The notes under the pieces are model-generated. The model had not been told where the DNA came from and ran no database searches. It worked only from the letters and a program-made list of their open reading frames with translations. Below, piece after piece: positions 6,100 to 55,624 of a stretch of 64,000 nt of DNA; the stretch's first letter is position 1; each line of letters begins with the position of its first letter. Source of the DNA: Candidatus Micrarchaeota archaeon. Lineage in GTDB: Archaea; Micrarchaeota; Micrarchaeia; Norongarragalinales; Norongarragalinaceae. Location of the stretch: the NCBI GenBank assembly GCA_016207165.1, contig JACQQD010000005.1, positions 98,736-162,735 on the forward strand, given 5' to 3'. The position numbers and the translations under genes are program-made.

Positions 6100-6254
6100 G
6101 CCTGAAACTGGAAACCAAGTACAAAAAGCGCATCATGCGCCGATGCCGTTTCTGCGGTGGCACCAAGGGCCTTATCCGGAAATACGGCCTCTACGTGTGC
6201 CGCAAGTGTTTCCGCGAACGCGCCGAGGAAATCGGATTCAAGAAATACTCGTGA
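6096..6254 (+). CDS. rps14: 30S ribosomal protein uS14 type Z (zinc-binding), GTG start overlapping the rpl5 stop
   Basis: 52 aa [52 protein letters not shown]; CxxC...CxxC. Confidence 0.85.
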
Positions 6255-6260
6255 GATTGC

Positions 6261-6644
6261 ATGGATTTGCTGGCTAACGCATTGAACCAAATCAAGATTG
6301 CCGAACGAAAGGGACTGCGCACGGTACGCATCGAGCCCACCAACAAACTGGTGCGCGACGTTCTCAACGTGCTGAAAAGCGCGGGCTACATTGCCGACGC
6401 CGAGTTTAGCGACGACGCGCGCGGCGGCCGCTTCGTCGTCACGCTCAACGGCGCGATTAACGAATGCGGCGTCATCAAACCGCGTTTCCCCGTTGGGAAA
6501 AAGACGTGGGAAAAATTCGAGCAGCGCTTCTTGCCCTCCAAGGACATCGGTGTCCTCATCGTGACTACGCCCCAAGGCGTGGTCACGCACAACGCCGCCA
6601 AGGAGAAACTCGTGGGCGGACGCCTTTTGGCGTACGCGTTTTAG
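6261..6644 (+). CDS. rps8: 30S ribosomal protein uS8 (S8)
   Basis: 127 aa, ...LANALNQIKIAERKG... Confidence 0.93.
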   Translation: MDLLANALNQIKIAERKGLRTVRIEPTNKLVRDVLNVLKSAGYIADAEFSDDARGGRFVVTLNGAINECGVIKPRFPVGKKTWEKFEQRFLPSKDIGVLIVTTPQGVVTHNAAKEKLVGGRLLAYAF

Positions 6645-6653
6645 TGAATTCTT

Positions 6654-7157
6654 ATGAAGTTACCCGACGGCGTCAACGTTTCCGTGGACCAAGGCACCAT
6701 TTCCGTCAAGGGTCCGAAAGGCCAGCTGTCGCGCGTCTTTGACCCCCAACGAATCATTGTGGACGTCCAGGGAACGGACGTGACTGTTTCGCCCAACGCC
6801 AAGAAAGCCACCCGCGAACTGAAGTCCCTGGCCGGCACTTTCCAGTCCCACATCGCCAACATGGCGCAAGGCGTGGTCCACGGCTTTGAAGTCAAACTCC
6901 AGCTGGTCTACTCGCATTTCCCCGTCAGCCTTGAAGTCAAGGGGCAGACGGTGGCCATCAAGAACTTCCTCGGGGAGAAAAACCCGCGGCACGCCAAAGT
7001 CGTTGGTTCAACCCAAGTCGACGTCAAGTCCCAGTCCATCACGGTTTCAGGCATCGACAAGGAAGCCGTGGGCCAGACGGCCGCGAACCTGATTTCCGCC
7101 ACGGGCGTCGGGCACCGGGACGAGCGCGTCTTCCAGGACGGCATTTACTACGCGTGA
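6654..7157 (+). CDS. rpl6: 50S ribosomal protein uL6 (L6)
   Basis: 167 aa; duplicated L6 alpha/beta domains. Confidence 0.9.
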   Translation: MKLPDGVNVSVDQGTISVKGPKGQLSRVFDPQRIIVDVQGTDVTVSPNAKKATRELKSLAGTFQSHIANMAQGVVHGFEVKLQLVYSHFPVSLEVKGQTVAIKNFLGEKNPRHAKVVGSTQVDVKSQSITVSGIDKEAVGQTAANLISATGVGHRDERVFQDGIYYA

Positions 7158-7939: not shown

Positions 7940-8439
7940 CGAAAGCAACCGGACCCCTGTTCCAAGTGCATTTCCGCCGCCGCCGCGAGGGCCGCACCGA
8001 CTACCAAAAAAGGCTCGCGCTTTTGAAAAGCGGCAAGCCCAGGTTGGTGGTGCGCAAGACGAACCGTTACGTCATCGTCCAGCTCGTCACGTTTTCGCCG
8101 CAAGGCGACCGCGTCATCGCGTCCGCCACGTCCAAGGACCTCAACGCATTTAACTTCACCGGGAAATGCAACACGCCGTCGGCGTACCTGACCGGACTCT
8201 TGGTTGGAACCCGCGCCAAGGCCAAGGGCGTCAAGGACTTCGTGCTGGACATCGGCCTTCACGCCCCCACGCAGGGAAGCCTGGTTTTCGCCGGCCTCAA
8301 GGGCGCCGTGGACGCCGGCCTGACGGCGCCGCACTCCAACGAGCGCTTCCCGGATGAAGCACGCATGAACGGCGAACACATTCAACTCAAGGAAGCCGTT
8401 TTAAGCGCGAAGCAAAAGATTCTAGGCGGTGCAACATGA
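7936..8439 (+). CDS. rpl18: 50S ribosomal protein uL18 (L18); ATG 7936 (ATGA overlap with rpl19e) preferred over upstream ATG 7927
   Basis: MTKATGPLFQVHFRRRREGRTDYQKRLALLKSGKPRLVVRKTNRYVIVQLV... Confidence 0.9.
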   Translation: MTKATGPLFQVHFRRRREGRTDYQKRLALLKSGKPRLVVRKTNRYVIVQLVTFSPQGDRVIASATSKDLNAFNFTGKCNTPSAYLTGLLVGTRAKAKGVKDFVLDIGLHAPTQGSLVFAGLKGAVDAGLTAPHSNERFPDEARMNGEHIQLKEAVLSAKQKILGGAT

Positions 8440-9104
8440 AATTCCGCGGCCGATTCGGCAAAGAACAACGAAAAAAAGACGACAAGCACTTGGAGTCCTG
8501 GGTGCCCAAAACCAGCCTCGGAAAGAGCGTGCGCGCCGGCGAAATCAATTCGTATGACGCGCTCTTGGCCACACAAAAACCCATTCTCGAACCGGAAATC
8601 ATCGATGTCCTGCTTCCCGACCTCATCGAGGACGTCCTGGAAATCCGCAGCACCCAACGCATGACGTCCTACGGCCGCAAACAACAAATGCGTGCCGTGG
8701 TCCTCGTCGGCAACAAGAAAGGAGTGTTGGGCGTCGGCATCGGCAAAGCCGCGGAAGTGCGCGACGCGATTGCCGAAGGCGTCAAGGACGCCAAAAAACA
8801 CTTGATTTGCGTGCCGTTTGGCTCCGGGTCCTGGGAAGACATTGCCGGACTTCAAAATTCGCTGCCCACGCAAGTCATTGGCAAAAGCGGCTCGACGACC
8901 ATCGTCATCAAGCCCGCGCCCCGCGGCGTGGGACTGGTGGCCGGAAAAGTCTCCAAGCAAGTCCTGGAGTTGGCCGGACTCAAGGACGCGTGGACGTTCA
9001 CCAAGGGCCGCACCCGAAACGTGTTGAACGTCGTGTTGGCGACCATGGACGCCCTGGATACGCTCAACCACCAAAAGAAAGGCGTGAAAGTCTCGGCATC
9101 CTGA
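8436..9104 (+). CDS. rps5: 30S ribosomal protein uS5 (S5)
   Basis: 222 aa, ...VVLVGNKKGVLGVGIGKAAEVRDAI... Confidence 0.93.
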   Translation: MKFRGRFGKEQRKKDDKHLESWVPKTSLGKSVRAGEINSYDALLATQKPILEPEIIDVLLPDLIEDVLEIRSTQRMTSYGRKQQMRAVVLVGNKKGVLGVGIGKAAEVRDAIAEGVKDAKKHLICVPFGSGSWEDIAGLQNSLPTQVIGKSGSTTIVIKPAPRGVGLVAGKVSKQVLELAGLKDAWTFTKGRTRNVLNVVLATMDALDTLNHQKKGVKVSAS

Positions 9105-11935: not shown

Positions 11936-12256
11936 ATGAAACGCTCCGTTTACCGACTCAAGAAACGCCAACGCAAGACGCCTTCCGGCAACCATTCCCA
12001 AATCCGGAAAAACAAGAAGCCCACTCCCGCCACCTGCGCTTTGTGCCGCCAGCGCCTCAACGCCGTCTTGAACCATTCCCGCGCCTTGATCAGAAAAACC
12101 GCGGCCACCGCCCGCCGTCCCCAACGCGTGTTCGGCGGCGTTCTGTGCGCCAACTGCACGCGCCACGTCGTCAAAACCAAAACCCGTCTAGCCCACGGCG
12201 CCGACGAGAAAGCCGTGCCGTTGACCCTGCTCAAATACGTCCGCATGCTCAAGTAG
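11936..12256 (+). CDS. rpl34e: 50S ribosomal protein eL34 (L34e), C4 zinc ribbon
   Basis: 106 aa, ...CALCRQ...CANC...; basic; position after DUF106. Confidence 0.8.
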   Translation: MKRSVYRLKKRQRKTPSGNHSQIRKNKKPTPATCALCRQRLNAVLNHSRALIRKTAATARRPQRVFGGVLCANCTRHVVKTKTRLAHGADEKAVPLTLLKYVRMLK

Positions 12257-12290
12257 GAATCTTTTAAACCCCGCATTCCTGTACTGGGTA

Positions 12291-12863
12291 ATGCGCATCG
12301 CCATTTCCAGCCTTTCCGGCTGCGGCAACTCCACGGTCTCCCGCATCGTGGCCAAAAAACTTGGACTTGAGTTCATCAACTACACGTTCCGCAACCTAGC
12401 CCGCGACACCAACGTCCTTTTTGAAACCATTCAATCCGAGTCCCTGAAAACCCCGAACTACGACTACGAGGTCGACCGCCGACAAATCGCCTTGATCCAA
12501 CAACATGACCACTGCGTGGTCGGAAGCCGCCTGGCGGTGTGGCTGGACGACGAAAAAATCCGCAAAAAAATCGCGGTCAAAGCCCCCGACTTCGACTTCA
12601 AAGTCTGGATTTACGCGCCATTAAAAGAAAGAGCGGCGCGCATCGCCCGCCGCGAGCACGCCCCCGTTCCCCAAGTGCTATCCGCCACGAAACTCCGCGA
12701 CGCGCAAAACGAGTTGCGGTACCGGAAATTGTATGGCATTGACGTGGAACGATTCCCCAAAGCCGTGGACCTCACCATCAACACGGAACGCTTTTCCGCC
12801 GAACAAGTCGCCGCTTTGATCATTTCCTCGGCAAGGAAAGTCAAATCCCTGAAATCCCGTTAG
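12291..12863 (+). CDS. cmk: cytidylate kinase (archaeal type)
   Basis: 190 aa; degenerate P-loop ISSLSGCGNST; lid ...RIARRE...; conserved rpl34e-cmk-rpl14e neighbourhood. Confidence 0.75.
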   Translation: MRIAISSLSGCGNSTVSRIVAKKLGLEFINYTFRNLARDTNVLFETIQSESLKTPNYDYEVDRRQIALIQQHDHCVVGSRLAVWLDDEKIRKKIAVKAPDFDFKVWIYAPLKERAARIARREHAPVPQVLSATKLRDAQNELRYRKLYGIDVERFPKAVDLTINTERFSAEQVAALIISSARKVKSLKSR

Positions 12864-12925
12864 ACCAAAGCCTTGAAAAACCCCTTTTCCCACCGTTTCA
12901 TTCCTCAATTTTAAGGTGATTACTC

Positions 12926-13093
12926 ATGGCTGCCATCGACATTGGACGCAAATGCGTCAAGCTCCGCGGACGGAAAACCGGCGAGACGGTGACGGTTTCA
13001 AAAAAAATCGACTCCAACTTCGTGGAAGTCACCGACTCGAAAGGAAAAACCAAGCGCTGCAACATCCGGCATTTGGAACCGTTGCCGGCGTGA
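12926..13093 (+). CDS. rpl14e: 50S ribosomal protein eL14 (L14e), minimal 55-aa KOW-only form (below the ORF-track length cutoff)
   Basis: MAAIDIGRKCVKLRGRKTGETVTVSKKIDSNFVEVTDSKGKTKRCNIRHLEPLPA resembles archaeal L14e (IEVGRICVKTRGREAGKKCVIV...NILHLEP); conserved position after cmk. Confidence 0.75.
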   Translation: MAAIDIGRKCVKLRGRKTGETVTVSKKIDSNFVEVTDSKGKTKRCNIRHLEPLPA

Positions 13094-13136
13094 GACGGAA
13101 ACTTGATTAATTCGTCCCGCTCTTTTACGGTGTGCC

Positions 13137-14135
13137 ATGAGCATCGCCCCGTTTGAACACCGTCGATTTCGCATCAACGGAATCAACGAAGAACGCTATC
13201 CCACGATCAAACGTGATTTAAACGGCATCATTTCCACGCCGGGCCGCGTCCGCACCGAGTTGGAAGAAAAGCTCACCAGCGAATACGTTTATCCCGCCAT
13301 TTTCAAGCCCATCCCTCACCCTCCAGACCTGGTAGGTTACCCGCGTCACGGCACAGACCGGCCCTTCCGAGCCATGCATTTTGCGGCGCTGGCCGATTTC
13401 ATGCGAGCGCTTCAACGAGAGCCTCCCACCGGAAAACTTGAAAAACCCGGGTCCTGGCTTTCCGGATTCCGCCAACAAGTCCTCGCCATGGTCGAGGAAT
13501 TGGCGGCGCTTTCCATGGATTTCCGCATCCGCCGGACGCCTCATGCCACCCTGGGCGCGTCGCTTGTTCAATCCCGCAACCTGGCCGAGACCGCCCACCA
13601 CAACCACGTGGCCCACGCCAACGTATGGGGCCGGTTGTGCCAAGGCATCACCCGTGTGACGCTTCGAGATGGGGAAGCCCAGCGCGAATCCATCGGCATC
13701 CACGCCTCGCAGATCGGATTGGTTCCCCTTACCGTGAGTCAAATCGCCCAGCACTACCTTGGCTTTGCCCTTCCCAAGACTCGTCTTTCCCGCGGTAACC
13801 GCGACGCGCGTTTCATTCCCGACGCGACTTCCTTTTCGTTCGGCAGGCAAGACGTCGCCCACTGGACGGGTTCTCACTTGTCTGCCGTGGAACTGGGGCA
13901 AAACAAGGAGAAGTTCGAGAAACTGGATGCCGACTTGAACGCCCACGTGGCGGCGCTGAAAGCTGCCGCTTCATTTGACTTGGGTGACCGCGTCCACCTC
14001 CATTACGGCTTGTACCTGGCCCAACAACTCACCGATGAAAAAAAGCGTGCGGAGTGTCTCCAAAGGCAAGTCCGTCGCGTACTTACCGTACTTTCCGAAA
14101 AATTGCCGGAGTCATATCGCAATCCCCGAAAGTAA
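13137..14135 (+). CDS. hypothetical protein (332 aa, no recognisable domain) inserted between rpl14e and cbf5
   Basis: long ORF with period-3 GC3 bias; no motif I can assign; an antisense ORF 13218..13946 also exists. Confidence 0.55.
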   Translation: MSIAPFEHRRFRINGINEERYPTIKRDLNGIISTPGRVRTELEEKLTSEYVYPAIFKPIPHPPDLVGYPRHGTDRPFRAMHFAALADFMRALQREPPTGKLEKPGSWLSGFRQQVLAMVEELAALSMDFRIRRTPHATLGASLVQSRNLAETAHHNHVAHANVWGRLCQGITRVTLRDGEAQRESIGIHASQIGLVPLTVSQIAQHYLGFALPKTRLSRGNRDARFIPDATSFSFGRQDVAHWTGSHLSAVELGQNKEKFEKLDADLNAHVAALKAAASFDLGDRVHLHYGLYLAQQLTDEKKRAECLQRQVRRVLTVLSEKLPESYRNPRK

Positions 14136-14185
14136 CCCGACGAAATAGTCGGGGTTTGCTATAACTGACGTAATTCTCTGTAAAT

Positions 14186-15214
14186 TTGGTTAAGCGTGAT
14201 GTCCGCCATTTTTTCCACGACTCGATTCTTCTTGGCCTTCATTTAAATCCTCGGAAGAAAATAATTCAACTCCGCGATGATTATATGATTACCCTTCACT
14301 CGGAAGAATCCACCTGGGGAAAGACCATGGATGAGAAGACCGTCGACGAAATCCTCCCCTATTCTTTGGTGGTCATCGACAAGCCCTGCGGCCCCTCCTC
14401 GCATGAAGTCTCCGCCTACGTGAAAAAGATTTTGGGCGTGACCAAGACCGGCCACTCCGGAACGCTTGATCCGGAAGTCTCCGGCGTCCTGCCGGTTTTG
14501 TTGGGCGAGGCGACGAAAGCCGCCGGTTTTTTGCTTCGCGAACGCAAGACGTACGTGGCCGTCATGAAACTCCGAGACCCGCAAACCGACGAACAGCTCG
14601 AAGACGCGTTCCAACGCTTCCGCGGCAAAATCTACCAGAAGCCCCCGAAAAAGTCGGCGGTCAAGCGGGAACTGCGCATCCGCGAGGTTTACTCGCTGAA
14701 ACTGCTTCAAAACGCCGGCCAATTCGTTGTTTTTGAATCCGAAGTCCAGGCTGGCACCTACATCCGAAAACTCTGCTACGATTTAGGCGAATACCTTGGG
14801 TGCGGAGGGTTGATGGCCGAACTCCGCCGCATCAATGCCGCCGGCTTTCCTGAAAACCAAGCCCACCCCCTCCAGCACTTGTCCGACGCCGTGTGGCTGT
14901 GGAAGGAGAAAGGCGACGACTCCGAAATCAAGAAAATCCTGGTGCCCATCGAAAACGCCATCCAACTCAAAAAAGTCGTGGTCTCCGATGGAGCCATCAA
15001 ACCCATTACTACCGGCGCCAACTTGGCCATTCCCGGCATTTTGTCTTTGGACGAAGGTATCCGGAAAGACGAACCCGTCCAAATTTTGTCCGGCAAAGGC
15101 GAACTGCTTTGCTTTGCCAAAGCCCTCAAGGACTCGGAAGAAATCCAATCCAAAAAGAAGGGCATCGCCTTTGACATCGAACGCGTGATTCGAGCGCACA
15201 ACGCGTACGGTTGA
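14186..15214 (+). CDS. cbf5: tRNA/rRNA pseudouridine synthase Cbf5 (TruB catalytic domain + PUA)
   Basis: ...LVVIDKPCGPSSHEVSAYVKKILGVTKTGHSGTLDPEVSGVLPVLL... (catalytic Asp motif GTLDP); N-terminus MVKRDVRH resembles Pyrococcus Cbf5 MARDEVRR; alternative starts 14285 and 14327. Confidence 0.88.
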   Translation: MVKRDVRHFFHDSILLGLHLNPRKKIIQLRDDYMITLHSEESTWGKTMDEKTVDEILPYSLVVIDKPCGPSSHEVSAYVKKILGVTKTGHSGTLDPEVSGVLPVLLGEATKAAGFLLRERKTYVAVMKLRDPQTDEQLEDAFQRFRGKIYQKPPKKSAVKRELRIREVYSLKLLQNAGQFVVFESEVQAGTYIRKLCYDLGEYLGCGGLMAELRRINAAGFPENQAHPLQHLSDAVWLWKEKGDDSEIKKILVPIENAIQLKKVVVSDGAIKPITTGANLAIPGILSLDEGIRKDEPVQILSGKGELLCFAKALKDSEEIQSKKKGIAFDIERVIRAHNAYG

Positions 15215-15273
15215 TTTTGAATCAACCGCGCGTTTTAATACCTCGGGCTCGACAACTGGTTTGAGGGTATGAA

Positions 15274-15492
15274 ATGGCTGAAATTACGCTCAACGACATG
15301 TACGCGGAACTAAAATGCCTGCACCAGGATGTGGAATACCTCAAGCGCCGCATGGACGAAAAAGAAGGAAAACCCGCCGACGATGAACCTCTTTCCGATT
15401 CGGAAGTCAAGCGCATGGAGGAGTTGATTGAGAAATCCATTAAGACCGGGCGCATCGTTTCCGAAGAAGAACTCTTTTCCTCCTTGAAGTGA
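15274..15492 (+). CDS. putative antitoxin (small acidic coiled-coil protein) of a type II TA pair
   Basis: 72 aa, 7-nt gap to downstream RelE/ParE-like ORF; possible RHH-like N-terminus MAEITLNDMYAELK. Confidence 0.5.
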   Translation: MAEITLNDMYAELKCLHQDVEYLKRRMDEKEGKPADDEPLSDSEVKRMEELIEKSIKTGRIVSEEELFSSLK

Positions 15493-15498
15493 ACTCCC

Positions 15499-15861
15499 GT
15501 GGAGTATTCGCTTTTCTCCACGGCCTTCTTCAAAACCCAGTTTGACTCTTTGCCCATCGACGAACGCCGGAAAATCCGCGACCGGCTTTTGCTGGCTAAA
15601 GCCAACCCGTTCCGCAACAAGGCCATCCACTCCAACCGCTTCAAGCGCTTGTTCCGAATCCGCTTGGACGTCCAAGGCGTTTCCATACGCTTGGTTTACG
15701 CGGTACTGGGCTCGAAAATCGTTGTGGCCGGCTTCATCCCCCGGGACAACGATTACCGGGATTTGGACTCGCTTCTCTCCAAAATGCAGCGGGAACTTGA
15801 AACCCAGACTGAGGCTGGCTTTTCTTTGGAGCCACCCGATTCAAAGCACGAAAAGGCCTAG
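15499..15861 (+). CDS. RelE/ParE-superfamily toxin (mRNA interferase-like)
   Basis: 120 aa; FFKTQFDSLPIDERRKIRDRLLLAKANPF...RFKRLFRIRLDVQGVSIRLVYAVLGSKIVVAGFIPRDNDY matches the RelE/ParE pattern (L..NP...k.l.g.l.g.yRiRvgdyRiiY). Confidence 0.7.
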   Translation: MEYSLFSTAFFKTQFDSLPIDERRKIRDRLLLAKANPFRNKAIHSNRFKRLFRIRLDVQGVSIRLVYAVLGSKIVVAGFIPRDNDYRDLDSLLSKMQRELETQTEAGFSLEPPDSKHEKA

Positions 15862-15882
15862 TACGCCCCCCGCGTAAAAGCG

Positions 15883-15889
15883 TTTAAAT
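15883..15889 (+). promoter_or_regulatory. TATA box (tttaaat) with purine-rich BRE-like aaaagcg upstream, ~24 nt before the ATG of the murein-hydrolase gene (leaderless)
   Basis: consensus archaeal TATA at canonical spacing. Confidence 0.45.
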
Positions 15890-15912
15890 CCCGATTCCGC
15901 CTCTTTTTGTTC

Positions 15913-18900
15913 ATGCGTGCCGTCTTTTCCCTTTCCATACTCGTCCTGCTTGTTTCGGCTTTCTCTATTTCCGCGGCAGGCAACTTGCTTGTCTTAAACA
16001 AGCAAGCCATTGCTTTTCAGCCTCCCTCGGATTGCTCGGGCAACCTGGCGTTGGAAGCCAGCATGGCCTGCGCCGCCAAAAACTCGGTTTTGGCGTCAGA
16101 CGGCCTGCGCTTGGATGTCCACGTGGGCTCCGATTTCGTCCAAAAATTGTCGGGCGCCAACACGCGTCTGACGTGGTTCACCGGCGAGGGCCCGGTAATC
16201 TCGGATGCCCTCTCGTTTCCTTTGACCGGCGAAGGCTTCAGCGTCATTCATTTCGACGGCCGCCAGCTTCACGTCTACGCGAGTACCTCGGACACGGAAG
16301 CCGCTGCGGCGCTCGGCCAATATCTTTTTGATGAACGGAAGAATTTGGCGTTCAACAAGGATTGCCGCCTCTCCGTTTCCAGTAACGGCGACGCCATTGC
16401 CTTCAAGAAGTGCGTGCCGACCAACCTGCCTACCAAATCCTCTTTTCAAACTCAGTCATTGGGCTCCCAAGCGTACGATGACTTTTTCGTCTACGATGCC
16501 GCGCAAGGCGGCGTTTCAGCGGGAGCTTTGCCGGAGTTGGGTGACTGTAGCAAGGTTGCGTTCTCCAAATGGCCCACGCCTTCCAAGGAAGTCATCGACA
16601 AGTTCAACGTGGCCGGACTTGGAGGTTACGATTCCGGTCATCGCACGCACAAGGGCATCGACATTTCCATTGCGGAGAACGACCCCGTCTACTCCGTTCT
16701 GCCCGGAAAAATCCTCGACATTTACTCGGCGTGTCCGGCTTACTCAACCCCCGCCGACTACGGTTGCGGCGGCGGCTTCGGAAACTTGGTGAAAGTCGTC
16801 CACGGAACGTGTACCTACGACGGACAGAAAAGCTACTTCATGACGCAATACAACCATTTGGCCAAGGCGGCCGACGGCCTCAAGATTGGAGACGGCGTTG
16901 CCGCTGGCCAGAAAATCGCGTTGGGCGGCAGCTCGGGAAGGTCCACAGGCCCCCACTTGCATTTCGGGGCCGCGTTAATCGACTCGCTGAAAACCGGTCA
17001 ATCCACGGATTCGGACTCCAACGTCGTGTTGAACCCATCGCCGGCCTTAACCGTGGCCTCGTTGCCTGCAGGCTCCGTTCCCGGCCCCGTTCAAGCGCGC
17101 CCGCAATCCATTTTGGATTTTGCGGAAGAAGGTAAAATCAAGACTTCAGTCAAAAACGGCGAAACCGGGATCCTAGCCATCACGCCTTCCGTCAACGGCC
17201 AATGCAGTCAACCGCCCCAAACACCCTATCTACTTGGGCAAGCCCAGGAACTTTCGTCCCCCATTTGCGTCTATTACCAGCTTAGCGCGGAGCACGCGGC
17301 GGCCGTGCAAGACATCGCCTTTGCCGGTTATAGCGAACGTTCCGGCAGTTACTTTACCGTCCGATCCGCCATTCCAAAGGACTCCTCCATCCAGTACCCG
17401 GAAGACTATGAATCGCAAGTCAACATCGGGAAACCACTTTCCGCTTCGGGCCAGCCATCCGCCGGTGTCGCCGTCGCCGCACTGCCTGTGCTTAAACCCG
17501 GTGACTCGTATCCGGGAGGCCTGCACTTGAACATGTATTTGCGCACGGAATTAATTTCTCCTTCAACGGAAGTCAGTGCGAATGCCAAGGCCCCGGGAAT
17601 TTCCCGCGTGAAAGTCGGTGAAATCAACGTCGGCCTCCTGAAAAGCAATTACATCAAGAACGTTCCAGGCTCGCTTCAAGGCAAGACCTTCGTCATCGAT
17701 CCCGGCCATGGCGGGCCGGACGGGTTGGGTTCCTACGTGGGCGCCGACGAGAAAACCACGCCCCGCCACGAACGCACCATCACGCTGGCTGTTTCCAAAG
17801 AACTCCGAGAGCTTCTCTCTGGCGCCGGCGCCAAGGTGGTCATGACGCGCGAAACCGACGTGGACGTCGATTTGTCAGACCGGGCGGACCTGGCGGACAG
17901 CCAGAACGCGGATGCGTTCGTCAGCGTCCACGTCAACTGCGACCGGGAAAAAGCGATTCGAGAAACGCAGGGAATCACCCAGTTTGCCGGCATCAAGAAA
18001 ACCGATCCTGAACTTTGCTCTGCGGGCGTGATCTATCCCAAAGTGGGAGGCGCGCAAGAGAAAAACAGCATTGGGTTGGCGCAAGCCATTGCCAAGTCCA
18101 TGTCCCTGGATTCCCTTCCGTCGTTTGGCGTGTACTTTGACGGCCCCGGTTCGACGTTCGTGGGCACGTATTACGCCGGAAAAATCTACAAGCCCACGCC
18201 GTTAGGCGTCCTTCGCGGCACTACCAAGACGGCGGTGCTGGTGGAAATGGGGCCCATCGACGACGATCGGCTGGATGACTCCAATTACCAGCAGCAATTG
18301 GCGCAACAGATTTACGGTGGGATTCTTCAGAAGTTTGGTACAAGTTCCACGCCGACTTCGGGTGCTTTCAATGTCCAATTGCATGCATGCACACAGGGGC
18401 AGGTCAACAACGGGGATTATTCGCTGACTTTTGAAGAACTTGACCCACTGATTACCGAAGCCTCCCAAAAGTATGGCGTTGAAAAGGCGCTCATCAAGGC
18501 CATCATTTCCCAGGAAAGCGGCCGCCGCCCCTGTGTCATTTCCTTTTACAAGGACTGCTGTTTTGGCTTGATGCAATTGAATCGGCTCAACGGCGATGAA
18601 ACCGGCTATAGTTTGGCGACCAGCACCGCCGGCGTCTTGCAACAGCAAACCGGGTTTGCTTGTTTTGATAAGCCCCTGGATCCCCGCAACAACATCATGT
18701 GTGGCGCCAAGCACTTGGCGGATTTGGTGCGTTTTTATGGCAACAAGTATCCTGGTCAGGACTCCATTAAAATCGTGGCCGCGGCCTACAACGCCGGCGG
18801 CGGAAACGTGGAAAAGTACGGCGGCGTGCCCCCGTTTGGCGAAACGCAAAACTACGTCGTTGAAGTCCGCAAGTTTTACGACCAGTACCGCACGGCGTAA
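15913..18900 (+). CDS. secreted multidomain peptidoglycan hydrolase: signal peptide + M23/LytM endopeptidase + Amidase_3 (MurNAc-L-Ala amidase) + C-terminal SLT lytic transglycosylase
   Basis: signal MRAVFSLSILVLLVSAFS; M23 motifs HKGIDIS...D...YNHL...GSSGRSTGPHLHFG; Amidase_3 KTFVIDPGHGGPDG...ADAFVSVHVNC; SLT ...LIKAIISQESGRRP...FGLMQLN...AAAYNAGGGNV; track ORF starts at TTG 15907, ATG 15913 preferred. Confidence 0.8.
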   Translation: MRAVFSLSILVLLVSAFSISAAGNLLVLNKQAIAFQPPSDCSGNLALEASMACAAKNSVLASDGLRLDVHVGSDFVQKLSGANTRLTWFTGEGPVISDALSFPLTGEGFSVIHFDGRQLHVYASTSDTEAAAALGQYLFDERKNLAFNKDCRLSVSSNGDAIAFKKCVPTNLPTKSSFQTQSLGSQAYDDFFVYDAAQGGVSAGALPELGDCSKVAFSKWPTPSKEVIDKFNVAGLGGYDSGHRTHKGIDISIAENDPVYSVLPGKILDIYSACPAYSTPADYGCGGGFGNLVKVVHGTCTYDGQKSYFMTQYNHLAKAADGLKIGDGVAAGQKIALGGSSGRSTGPHLHFGAALIDSLKTGQSTDSDSNVVLNPSPALTVASLPAGSVPGPVQARPQSILDFAEEGKIKTSVKNGETGILAITPSVNGQCSQPPQTPYLLGQAQELSSPICVYYQLSAEHAAAVQDIAFAGYSERSGSYFTVRSAIPKDSSIQYPEDYESQVNIGKPLSASGQPSAGVAVAALPVLKPGDSYPGGLHLNMYLRTELISPSTEVSANAKAPGISRVKVGEINVGLLKSNYIKNVPGSLQGKTFVIDPGHGGPDGLGSYVGADEKTTPRHERTITLAVSKELRELLSGAGAKVVMTRETDVDVDLSDRADLADSQNADAFVSVHVNCDREKAIRETQGITQFAGIKKTDPELCSAGVIYPKVGGAQEKNSIGLAQAIAKSMSLDSLPSFGVYFDGPGSTFVGTYYAGKIYKPTPLGVLRGTTKTAVLVEMGPIDDDRLDDSNYQQQLAQQIYGGILQKFGTSSTPTSGAFNVQLHACTQGQVNNGDYSLTFEELDPLITEASQKYGVEKALIKAIISQESGRRPCVISFYKDCCFGLMQLNRLNGDETGYSLATSTAGVLQQQTGFACFDKPLDPRNNIMCGAKHLADLVRFYGNKYPGQDSIKIVAAAYNAGGGNVEKYGGVPPFGETQNYVVEVRKFYDQYRTA

Positions 18901-25348: not shown

Positions 25349-25497
25349 CCCGCTGTAGCTCAACCTGGCAGAGCACCTGACTGTAGGACTGCGGACCGTT
25401 TTTGTAGGTACGTTTTCCGGTTACAGCCTGCTCTGTCTTTAGAGACAGATTCCTGAAAGAAATCAGGGTGTTGCCAGTTCAAATCTGGCCAGCGGGA
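25349..25497 (+). tRNA. tRNA-Tyr(GUA) precursor with ~75-nt canonical 37/38 intron (25387-25461)
   Basis: acceptor CCCGCTG/CAGCGGG + A73; D-arm GCTC-AACCTGGCA-GAGC; anticodon stem CCTGA/TCAGG with loop CUGUAG|intron; variable GTGTT; T-arm GCCAG-TTCAAAT-CTGGC. Confidence 0.75.
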
Positions 25498-54715: not shown

Positions 54716-55624
54716 ATGCGTCACGCCTTACTGTTCATTCTGGCCATTCTGGCCGTTTCGCTGTTCTTTTCCGGGTGCCTGGAAAACGTGCTCCGCCCCG
54801 AACCCCTCGACACTCCAAAGACCGCGTCCGCCCCCAATTCACTCGCGGCAAGCCCCTTGCATTCCCCAACGCCTGTACCCAGTCCCACTTCAACGCCCGC
54901 CGTGCCTTCGGCAACAACGCCCGCCATTTTAGAGCCCTTTACGCCTTCTCCAACCGCCGCACCTCCTATCCGAGTCACAACGCCTCTGGCGATCTCCCCG
55001 TCGCCTCCCGCATCACTTGGCGCGTCTGCGACTCCCGCGGCCCTCCGCTTGGCGTTGCCGGTTTCCGAAGTCGTGTTGAAGTCCGGCGACCGCGTGGAAC
55101 TTGACCACGGCGTGACCGTCGAACTGGTGTTGATCAACGTCTTGACCGTTGACGGCGTGACCCAGCGCTCCGTTTCCCTCTTGGAATACCCCACCGGTTC
55201 TCGCCCCCAAAGCCCCACGTCCGTTCACTTGCTTTCCGGCCAAACCCAAGACTTTTCCAGCACCCGTGTTGGAGTGCTTCGCATCAGCGACCAAAATGCG
55301 GCGTTGTCCATGTACGCCAAGCCAACGTTGACCCCTTCAGCCAGCCCGGTTCCCACGCCCCTATTCTTGGAAGCCATGGCCGCAGGCCAAACCGTGACGG
55401 CCCCCAACGGCTACGAAGTCACCTTGTCCTCCATTTACTTGAACCAAACCAACTCTACGGCTACTTTCCTGATTCATGATCAAGGAGGCCGGCTCCTGGA
55501 TTCGGCGGTCCTTTTCGAACACGGCTCCTACCAAAAAAACGACCTTAAAATCGATTTGGCGTTGATACTCAGCGGCTTGGGTCCCACGAACTTCGCGCAA
55601 GTCACCCTGACGAAAATCCCGTGA
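54716..55624 (+). CDS. secreted lipoprotein with Pro/Ser/Thr-rich linker (lipobox FFSGC)
   Basis: MRHALLFILAILAVSLFFSGC signal; PT-rich low-complexity region; divergent from ABC operon. Confidence 0.55.
   Translation: MRHALLFILAILAVSLFFSGCLENVLRPEPLDTPKTASAPNSLAASPLHSPTPVPSPTSTPAVPSATTPAILEPFTPSPTAAPPIRVTTPLAISPSPPASLGASATPAALRLALPVSEVVLKSGDRVELDHGVTVELVLINVLTVDGVTQRSVSLLEYPTGSRPQSPTSVHLLSGQTQDFSSTRVGVLRISDQNAALSMYAKPTLTPSASPVPTPLFLEAMAAGQTVTAPNGYEVTLSSIYLNQTNSTATFLIHDQGGRLLDSAVLFEHGSYQKNDLKIDLALILSGLGPTNFAQVTLTKIP

Follow-up and report, generated by a model that had tools for sequence, protein, structure and literature searches.

The L34e-L14e-Cbf5 gene string lies beside S13-S4-S11 in archaea (PMC10833476). 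In the window analysed here (the whole stretch of 64,000 nucleotides, from a Candidatus Micrarchaeota genome), a 332-codon open reading frame, ORF332, stands between the genes for L14e and Cbf5, at a junction referred to below as the slot. The features of the region are as follows:

11936-12256, L34e (Pfam, E=1.5e-12)
12291-12863, cmk (NCBIfam cyt_kin_arch, E=2e-29)
12926..13093, plus strand, rpl14e (L14e), 55 aa, upstream border of the slot (NCBIfam PRK04333, E=5e-17)
13103..13113, plus strand, TATA-like box TTGATTAATTC, putative own promoter of ORF332, read from the sequence
13129..13132, plus strand, putative Shine-Dalgarno-like GGTG, 4 nt before the ORF332 start
13137..14135, plus strand, ORF332, orphan protein-coding gene (ORF listing, coding statistics, self-matches only)
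13218..13946, minus strand, 242-aa antisense ORF, read as a shadow of ORF332 (codon score, no family match)
14136..14153, plus strand, 6-bp GC-rich hairpin CCCGAC-GAAATA-GTCGGG, directly after the ORF332 TAA
14209..14214, plus strand, T6 tract, candidate archaeal termination signal of the ORF332 transcript
14257..14270, plus strand, promoter-like motif GAAAATAATTCAAC, 15-28 nt upstream of the cbf5 ATG
14285..15214, plus strand, cbf5, downstream border of the slot (NCBIfam Cbf5, E=7e-109)
15274..15861, plus strand, orf72 and orf120, possible antitoxin/RelE-like pair in the cbf5-S13 slot (weak orf120 matches)
15907..18900, plus strand, 997-aa secreted peptidoglycan hydrolase with M23, Amidase_3 and SLT domains (Pfam)

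The L14e match to PRK04333 covers positions 1-54 of 88, and the window's L14e is 69-82% identical to the 55-aa L14e genes of relatives in the clade. The likely start of cbf5 is ATG 14285 because the gene is publicly annotated with 309 aa, which disfavours the longest-ORF TTG at 14186; the MITL sequence also opens the Cbf5 proteins of the relatives. L14e and cbf5 are thus 1191 nt apart, in place of the adjacency (a gap of 0 to about 200 nt) seen at other loci. Between them, the ORF listing recovered the 332-aa ORF of the original prediction at the same coordinates, with an ATG start and a TAA stop; ATG 13137 is the first possible start, given an in-frame stop at 13104-13106.

Several sequence signals surround ORF332. 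The TATA-like box lies 24-34 nt upstream of its ATG, and a comparable TATA-like CTGATATTTATTG occurs about 35 nt upstream of a 307-aa slot ORF in a related genome (locus L030). The GGTG has the same layout as the start of the S5 gene at 8436 (GGCGGTGCAAC-ATG), and a (G)GTGA motif precedes many genes in the window. Together, the TATA-like box and the GGTG suggest that ORF332 may be translated, whether its message is a short-leader transcript of its own or read-through from L14e. Downstream, the hairpin that had been predicted after the ORF is present as a single copy in the window (0.06 expected by chance), and as a fold it is not statistically unusual (z=-1.1 in a 71-nt context). Archaeal terminators are oligo-T runs, and the T6 tract follows the hairpin. 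ORF332 does not overlap cbf5, from which it is separated by a 149-nt spacer that includes the hairpin. The promoter-like motif before cbf5 occurs once in the window and recurs upstream of cbf5 in the nearest relatives, L021 and L022, as GAAAATAAATCAAC; the shared form is GAAAATAA(A/T)TCAAC.

Coding signal and product of ORF332

The coding signal of ORF332 was measured against composition-matched random sequence. Its period-3 power was 6.64, compared with a null of 0.67 +/- 0.39 (z=15.4), and its codon log-likelihood was +0.17 bit per codon, compared with -0.34 +/- 0.08 (z=6.6), bearing out the genuine coding periodicity that had been claimed for it. The remaining two plus-strand frames scored -0.49 and -0.74, a pattern like that of bona fide genes, and each contains 7 internal stops, as opposed to none in the ORF332 frame. 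In Markov-1 sequences with the composition of the insert the longest stop-free run averaged ~335 codons per 64 kb, so that length alone is weak evidence of coding, although only 5 of 2000 random sequences of 1191 nt had a run of at least 332 codons; it is the coding statistics that decide the matter. With a codon score of about 0.17-0.20 bit per codon, ORF332 ranks near the bottom of the window's 71 likely genes; core genes reach 0.5-0.6 and the hydrolase 0.27. Foreign origin, weak constraint and a young gene would fit this low score equally well.

The 242-aa antisense ORF, which the original prediction had named as a possible real gene, is the weaker candidate: it is shorter, has no family match and scores 0.07-0.09 bit per codon, compared with +0.20 in the sense frame. 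A mild signal of this kind is also found opposite real genes (0.14 in cbf5 antisense), and the antisense frame contains 3 stops across the insert. No antisense or out-of-frame ORF of the insert matched Pfam, PHROGs or PADLOC, and the antisense ORF behaves like a shadow ORF. No match to an Rfam covariance model was found at E<=1 across positions 12000-16000, which speaks against a structured RNA gene.

The ORF332 product is a protein of 37.5 kDa with a pI of 9.8, rich in Arg, Ala and Leu and containing 4.8% His. It is already deposited at NCBI as MBI4360661.1, 'hypothetical protein HY572_02705 [Candidatus Micrarchaeota archaeon]', a singleton cluster from one 204-kb contig. As originally described, it has no recognisable motif: neither a P-loop nor a CxxC was present, and the Kyte-Doolittle profile over a 19-residue window peaked at 1.19, with no transmembrane segment.

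Homology searches returned ORF332 itself and nothing else. Among 5.8 billion clusters it matched itself alone, and an exhaustive phmmer search over 1.84 billion representatives gave only the self-match; no relatives were found in viral contigs, metagenome contigs, phage records or plasmid records. Nothing credible emerged from Pfam, NCBIfam, PHROGs, PADLOC or PDB (best PDB sequence match E=1.6), and sub-threshold matches to an Isd linker (E=0.097) and phrog_24398 (E=0.067) were taken as noise. An AbiEii toxin was also rejected, as the PADLOC match (E=0.013) comprised 28 residues in the wrong part of the profile (ORF332 residues 264-291 against positions 82-109 of 294), with no full-length match including the N-terminal nucleotidyltransferase motifs and no match to Pfam AbiEii. 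A TetR regulator, the best PDB match of a profile built from four slot proteins (E=0.037), was judged to be a chance hit. The insert has no paralogue or DNA repeat elsewhere in the window beyond chance.

AlphaFold2 models of the protein were of low confidence (pLDDT 38 from the single sequence, 42 from a 3-sequence alignment), with helices throughout and a C-terminal helical hairpin that alone reaches about 70-80. Foldseek comparison of the model with PDB gave only generic helical bundles, at E 0.28 or higher. ORF332 combines two marks of an orphan gene, having no homologue outside its own genome in the databases searched and showing statistical evidence of coding. The original prediction had counted absence from all relatives, coupled with a lack of expression, against the gene; ORF332 is absent or unrecognisable in all relatives sampled.

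Two variable junctions around cbf5

Close relatives of the window were found by a Cbf5 search, which gave ten with Cbf5 67-82% identical to that of the window; a further Cbf5 scan of metagenomes added no closer ones, yielding distant relatives alone (about 45% identity). The identities listed here are of Cbf5 against the window, taken from a pairwise matrix, and BLAST-based values are 1-3 points higher. The slot contents in these relatives are:

L021, nearest relative, Cbf5 82%: contig ends 60 nt upstream of cbf5, short of the slot
L022/L023, Cbf5 79%: 70-aa minus-strand ORF
L024, Cbf5 75%: 402-bp gap, no ORF
L026, Cbf5 75%: PIN and MazE, minus strand
L025, L027, L029, Cbf5 71-76%: slot empty, about 100 nt
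L028, Cbf5 70%: 295-aa plus-strand ORF, 6117-7004, overlapping the cbf5 ATG
L030, same sample as the window, Cbf5 67%: 307-aa plus-strand ORF, 1066-1989, overlapping the cbf5 ATG

The L14e-cbf5 junction of this clade is therefore a slot of variable content, for which ORF332 is one alternative occupant among several. The 70-aa ORF in L022 resembles orf72 of the window (pairwise E=6e-4), and about 285 bp between it and L14e are free of ORFs. Neither this gap nor that of L024 contained remnants of ORF332 or of the 295- and 307-aa ORFs, at the DNA or protein level. In a neighbour-joining tree of Cbf5, L030 is basal, the window groups with L021 and L022, and L028 falls in another subclade; with this topology, a slot occupant of ~300 aa requires either three losses or three gains.

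The adjacency of L14e and cbf5 is intact in L003, L014-L017, L019, L025, L027, L029 and L031, and cbf5 directly follows L14e in distant loci of Micrarchaeota, 'Nanobdellati' and Bathyarchaeia (Cbf5 about 45% identical). The rpl14e-cbf5 junction that the original prediction called universally conserved is intact in these distant lineages, but 'universally' was an overstatement: in the Nitrosopumilaceae loci examined, cmk adjoins cbf5 with no L14e detectable between them.

A second variable slot lies on the other side of cbf5. In the window it holds orf72 and orf120, whose homologues occupy the same place in L021 (83% and 79% identical). The description of this pair as a toxin-antitoxin module has weak backing from sub-threshold matches of orf120 to Gp49 (E=0.002, below the curated cut-off) and to a RelE-like PHROG (E=0.009); no RelE-type match of orf120 was found in PDB. 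HEPN/MNT pairs are present in this slot in L021 and L030, and in L025 a pair of one of these kinds is followed by a duplicated cbf5 3' fragment, which suggests integration events. A large hydrolase occurs in the cbf5-S13 slot of every clade relative whose sequence reaches it (L021, L025-L029). These proteins are 918-1473 aa long and combine M23 with amidase, SLT, YkuD or similar domains, and their sequences have diverged to about 27% identity.

ORF332, the orf72-orf120 pair and the hydrolase had been proposed to form a single accessory insertion of ~5.7 kb, a view that the relatives do not support. Since cbf5 stands between the accessory stretches, there are two separate slots, and since the hydrolase is found in every clade relative that reaches the region, it is a clade-level feature and not a recent insertion.

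Origin and role of ORF332

The ORFs of ~300 aa in the window, L030 and L028 share their slot position and strand and are similar in length, and their products (ORF332; L030_307, P0124/P0125; L028_295, P0122/P0126) were compared for common ancestry. All are hydrophilic, with 4-5.5% His and similar hydropathy, and L030_307 and L028_295 have no Pfam domain. BLASTP among them was not significant (E=0.02-0.6 in single comparisons), nor was hhalign (probability 1.6%). Smith-Waterman scores for the three pairs (z=4.4, 2.2 and 2.5) all fell in the upper tail of the shuffles, the highest being that of ORF332 with L030_307, which was equalled in 2 of 400 shuffles. Twelve control pairs were mostly near 0 (range -1.0 to +2.1), with two of them at 1.9-2.1, close to the values of the two L028 pairs.

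Profile comparisons were likewise mixed. When ORF332 was scored with an L030_307 HMM, 2 to 7 of 2000 locally shuffled decoys did as well, and an HMM of ORF332, L028_295 and P0122 scored against L030_307 was equalled by 0 to 1 of 2000; shuffle-based p values were about 0.001-0.004 for L030_307. L028-based HMMs gave p of about 0.03-0.06 against ORF332, and the reversed ORF332 sequence outscored the real one. MAFFT alignment of ORF332 with P0122 had 84 identical columns versus 69.8 +/- 5.3 expected, and the identity of ORF332 with L030_307 fell below the null. A collinear motif (KFEKLDADLNAHVAALKAA, KIESLLVDLTRHVNGLSHA and RLELLQSRLTRYIHGLDSA) is present in all three, some 60 residues ahead of the C-terminus. 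Weak matches of L030_307 to JetA (E=0.006, 0.023) were judged not credible.

Between two close genomes the L028 slot protein is 89% identical and Cbf5 96%, a rate of change about 3 times higher in the slot protein. As a rough estimate, a clock-like 3-fold rate predicts ~25-35% identity among homologous slot proteins, a level that would have been detected. The ATGA overlap with the cbf5 start, by which the ~300-aa slot protein would be translationally coupled to cbf5 in L030 and L028, is not shared by ORF332. The similarity among the three proteins is weak and inconsistent (p about 0.001 to 0.04), and whether they are diverged homologues is a close call that we would place slightly on the negative side. 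A more specific proposal, namely that the slot ORFs form one clade-specific, fast-evolving, His-rich alpha-helical family, co-transcribed with and ancestrally translationally coupled to Cbf5, acting as a partner or regulator of H/ACA pseudouridylation or ribosome biogenesis and lost or replaced several times, appears improbable. If true, the proteins of such a family would be candidate lineage-specific RNA-modification or ribosome-biogenesis factors.

The interpretation that we favour, with reasonable if limited confidence, is that ORF332 is a genuine, taxonomically restricted coding gene in a hypervariable rpl14e-cbf5 accessory slot of one Micrarchaeota clade. Its expression would start at a TATA-like box of its own, ~30 nt upstream, or depend on L14e read-through, with the GGTG as its putative ribosome-binding site; its transcript would probably end at the hairpin and T-tract, and cbf5 may be driven by its own conserved promoter-like motif. 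The product is predicted to be soluble, basic, rich in His and all-alpha, with a helical hairpin at its C-terminus; it has no catalytic motif. Given this predicted architecture and the lack of such a motif, its most likely mode of action is to bind a protein or nucleic-acid partner, and not catalysis. Cbf5 and RNA are candidate partners, and the protein may also have a selfish or defence role like that of the toxin-antitoxin cassettes in this slot. Because the slot is empty in three relatives, ORF332 appears to be dispensable. As to its origin, the reading that we favour, at a little under even odds, is descent from a ~300-aa plus-strand slot protein, of which ORF332 would be a strongly diverged local version.

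Alternatively, ORF332 could have been acquired recently from a mobile element or virus that has not been sampled, for example as a solitary toxin or a defence or anti-defence gene, and be unrelated to the other ~300-aa slot ORFs. The traffic through both junctions would be consistent with this explanation, including PIN/MazE and the orf72-like ORF in the slots of L026 and L022, HEPN/MNT (L021, L030) and orf72/orf120 (window, L021) in the neighbouring cbf5-S13 slot, and the duplicated cbf5 fragment in L025, as would the atypical codon usage of ORF332 and its own promoter-like and terminator-like signals. However, direct and inverted repeats in the flanks were at chance level only, and there was no integrase or transposase and no tRNA target nearby, so that the usual signs of an integrated mobile element are lacking here. 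Viral contigs, phages, plasmids and PHROGs gave no match, and PADLOC only the 28-residue AbiEii hit; the GC3 of ORF332 (0.66) is host-like, and a 332-aa protein with no partner gene is unlike a type II toxin-antitoxin component. We regard an origin as mobile cargo as unlikely but not implausible.

It is rather improbable that ORF332 is a neutral ORF, either a young one born de novo where an intergenic region had expanded, or a degenerating gene that has stayed open by luck. The singleton status of ORF332, the ORF-free gaps in L024 and L022, its low codon score, and an insert composition in which long stop-free runs are fairly common would all be compatible with such an ORF. Nevertheless, its periodicity and codon usage are far above those of non-coding sequence, its frame is free of the stops that interrupt each other plus-strand frame, and it resembles the gaps of the relatives in neither DNA nor protein sequence. 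That the real feature is the antisense ORF or a structured non-coding RNA is scarcely conceivable, since the existence of a long antisense ORF and a regional GC of 0.61, slightly above the flanks, are outweighed by a shadow-level codon signal usual here, an antisense product with no family match and the absence of any Rfam match.

ORF332, then, is an unremarkable accessory gene restricted to its lineage. DPANN genomes contain many hypothetical orphan proteins, and on its own another one is of little consequence. Of broader interest is its location: both junctions flanking cbf5 in this Micrarchaeota clade are hot spots inside the ribosomal superoperon, where toxin-antitoxin cassettes and orphan ORFs have accumulated along with a giant secreted peptidoglycan hydrolase. 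Accessory cargo is tolerated even within the most conserved gene string of archaea, probably because it obtains strong constitutive transcription.

Compared with the canonical archaeal L34e-(cmk)-L14e-Cbf5 cluster beside S13-S4-S11 (PMC10833476), the window matches in gene order and in all flanking genes, but 1191 bp separate its L14e from cbf5, which are neighbours in that cluster. The type II toxin-antitoxin cassettes beside cbf5 (PIN/MazE, HEPN/MNT, RelE-like) resemble ORF332 in being accessory cargo of patchy distribution. Such a module consists of two small adjacent genes with a family match, whereas ORF332 stands alone at 332 aa and none of Pfam, PHROG and PADLOC links it to a toxin or antitoxin family, and this assignment was rejected. 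The 307-aa and 295-aa ORFs of L030 and L028 have the slot, the strand, a similar length and a His-rich hydrophilic composition in common with ORF332, but they run into the cbf5 start (ATGA), whereas ORF332 is followed by the hairpin and the 149-nt spacer. Like the orphan genes of DPANN variable islets, ORF332 has no homologue at E<=0.001 in very large databases, is coding and sits at a position whose content varies among close relatives; the difference is that its islet lies not in a peripheral island but inside the otherwise conserved L34e-cmk-L14e-cbf5-S13 string of the ribosomal superoperon.

A peptidoglycan hydrolase between cbf5 and S13

Our analysis of the cbf5 loci of clade relatives (L021 to L030) revealed that the interval between cbf5 and S13, within the ribosomal superoperon, houses a giant secreted peptidoglycan hydrolase, found in the window and in all relatives with a contig covering this region:

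window 15907-18900, giant hydrolase between cbf5 and S13
L021 3285-6041, the same
L025 8746-13074, the same
L026 7973-12355, the same
L027 2095-6516, the same
L028 7974-10781, the same
L029 3159-7046, the same

These proteins combine an M23 domain with a changing set drawn from Amidase_3, Amidase_2, SLT, YkuD, GDSL and GH3, and the identity among them is only about 27%.

Small cassettes and variable slots around cbf5

In L025, the intact cbf5 is followed by a pair of genes for 65 and 88 aa and then by a second but incomplete copy of its 3' end (8493-8685; residues 241-305, 58-75% identical). The position of this partial copy downstream of the gene pair suggests that the 65-aa/88-aa cassette was inserted and that the cbf5 3' end was duplicated in the process. 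A further small gene was located in the L14e-cbf5 slot of another relative:

L022 1397-1609, minus strand, 70-aa ORF

The N-terminus of its product is similar to that of orf72 (window 15274-15492), the first gene of the small pair in the cbf5-S13 slot, sharing a TL-D-Y-EL motif (pairwise E=6e-4); on this resemblance, different genomes appear to carry related small cassettes on opposite sides of cbf5.

The contig of L021, the closest relative, is 24 kb long and stops 60 nt upstream of cbf5 (L021 1-60), exactly at the variable slot, which may represent a break in the assembly arising from heterogeneity among strains at this position.

The cmk-L14e junction is a second variable slot in the clade, and in several relatives it contains one of two fast-evolving families of basic ORFs (114-137 aa and 186 aa), with no Pfam domain detected in either:

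L024 2719-3063, cmk-L14e slot ORF, family of 114-137 aa
L025 6208-6621, the same
L026 5591-5944, the same
L029 1401-1811, the same
L027 172-732, cmk-L14e slot ORF, family of 186 aa
L028 4891-5451, the same

This slot is empty in the window (a gap of 62 nt) and likewise, judged by gene calls, in L030 and L022.

Insertions upstream of SecY and other atypical features

The region upstream of SecY likewise carries inserted extra ORFs in relatives; in the window, L15 adjoins SecY.

L028 409-1491, 360-aa DUF8203 protein between L15 and SecY
L025 162-2595, three unannotated ORFs upstream of SecY

Two more long ORFs in the window score below ORF332, the orphan gene between L14e and cbf5, in codon usage (0.09 and 0.12 bit per codon), and may be further atypical or orphan genes:

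window 48576-49616, minus strand, long ORF with low codon score
window 54716-55624, plus strand, the same

An Rfam tRNA match at window 25349-25497 (50.6 bits), not reported by ARAGORN, covers 149 nt against the 71 positions of the model, implying that this tRNA contains an intron.

The cbf5 start and the short L14e

The longest cbf5 ORF in the window begins with TTG at 14186. According to the public gene call, and to the MITL start conserved in relatives, cbf5 starts at ATG 14285, and the 99 nt at 14186-14284 are therefore probably promoter and leader, not coding sequence.

Across the clade, L14e is 55 aa long (window 12926-13093; L14e genes of L022 to L030) and aligns to positions 1-54 of an NCBIfam model with 88 positions, lacking the C-terminal third of the canonical L14e.
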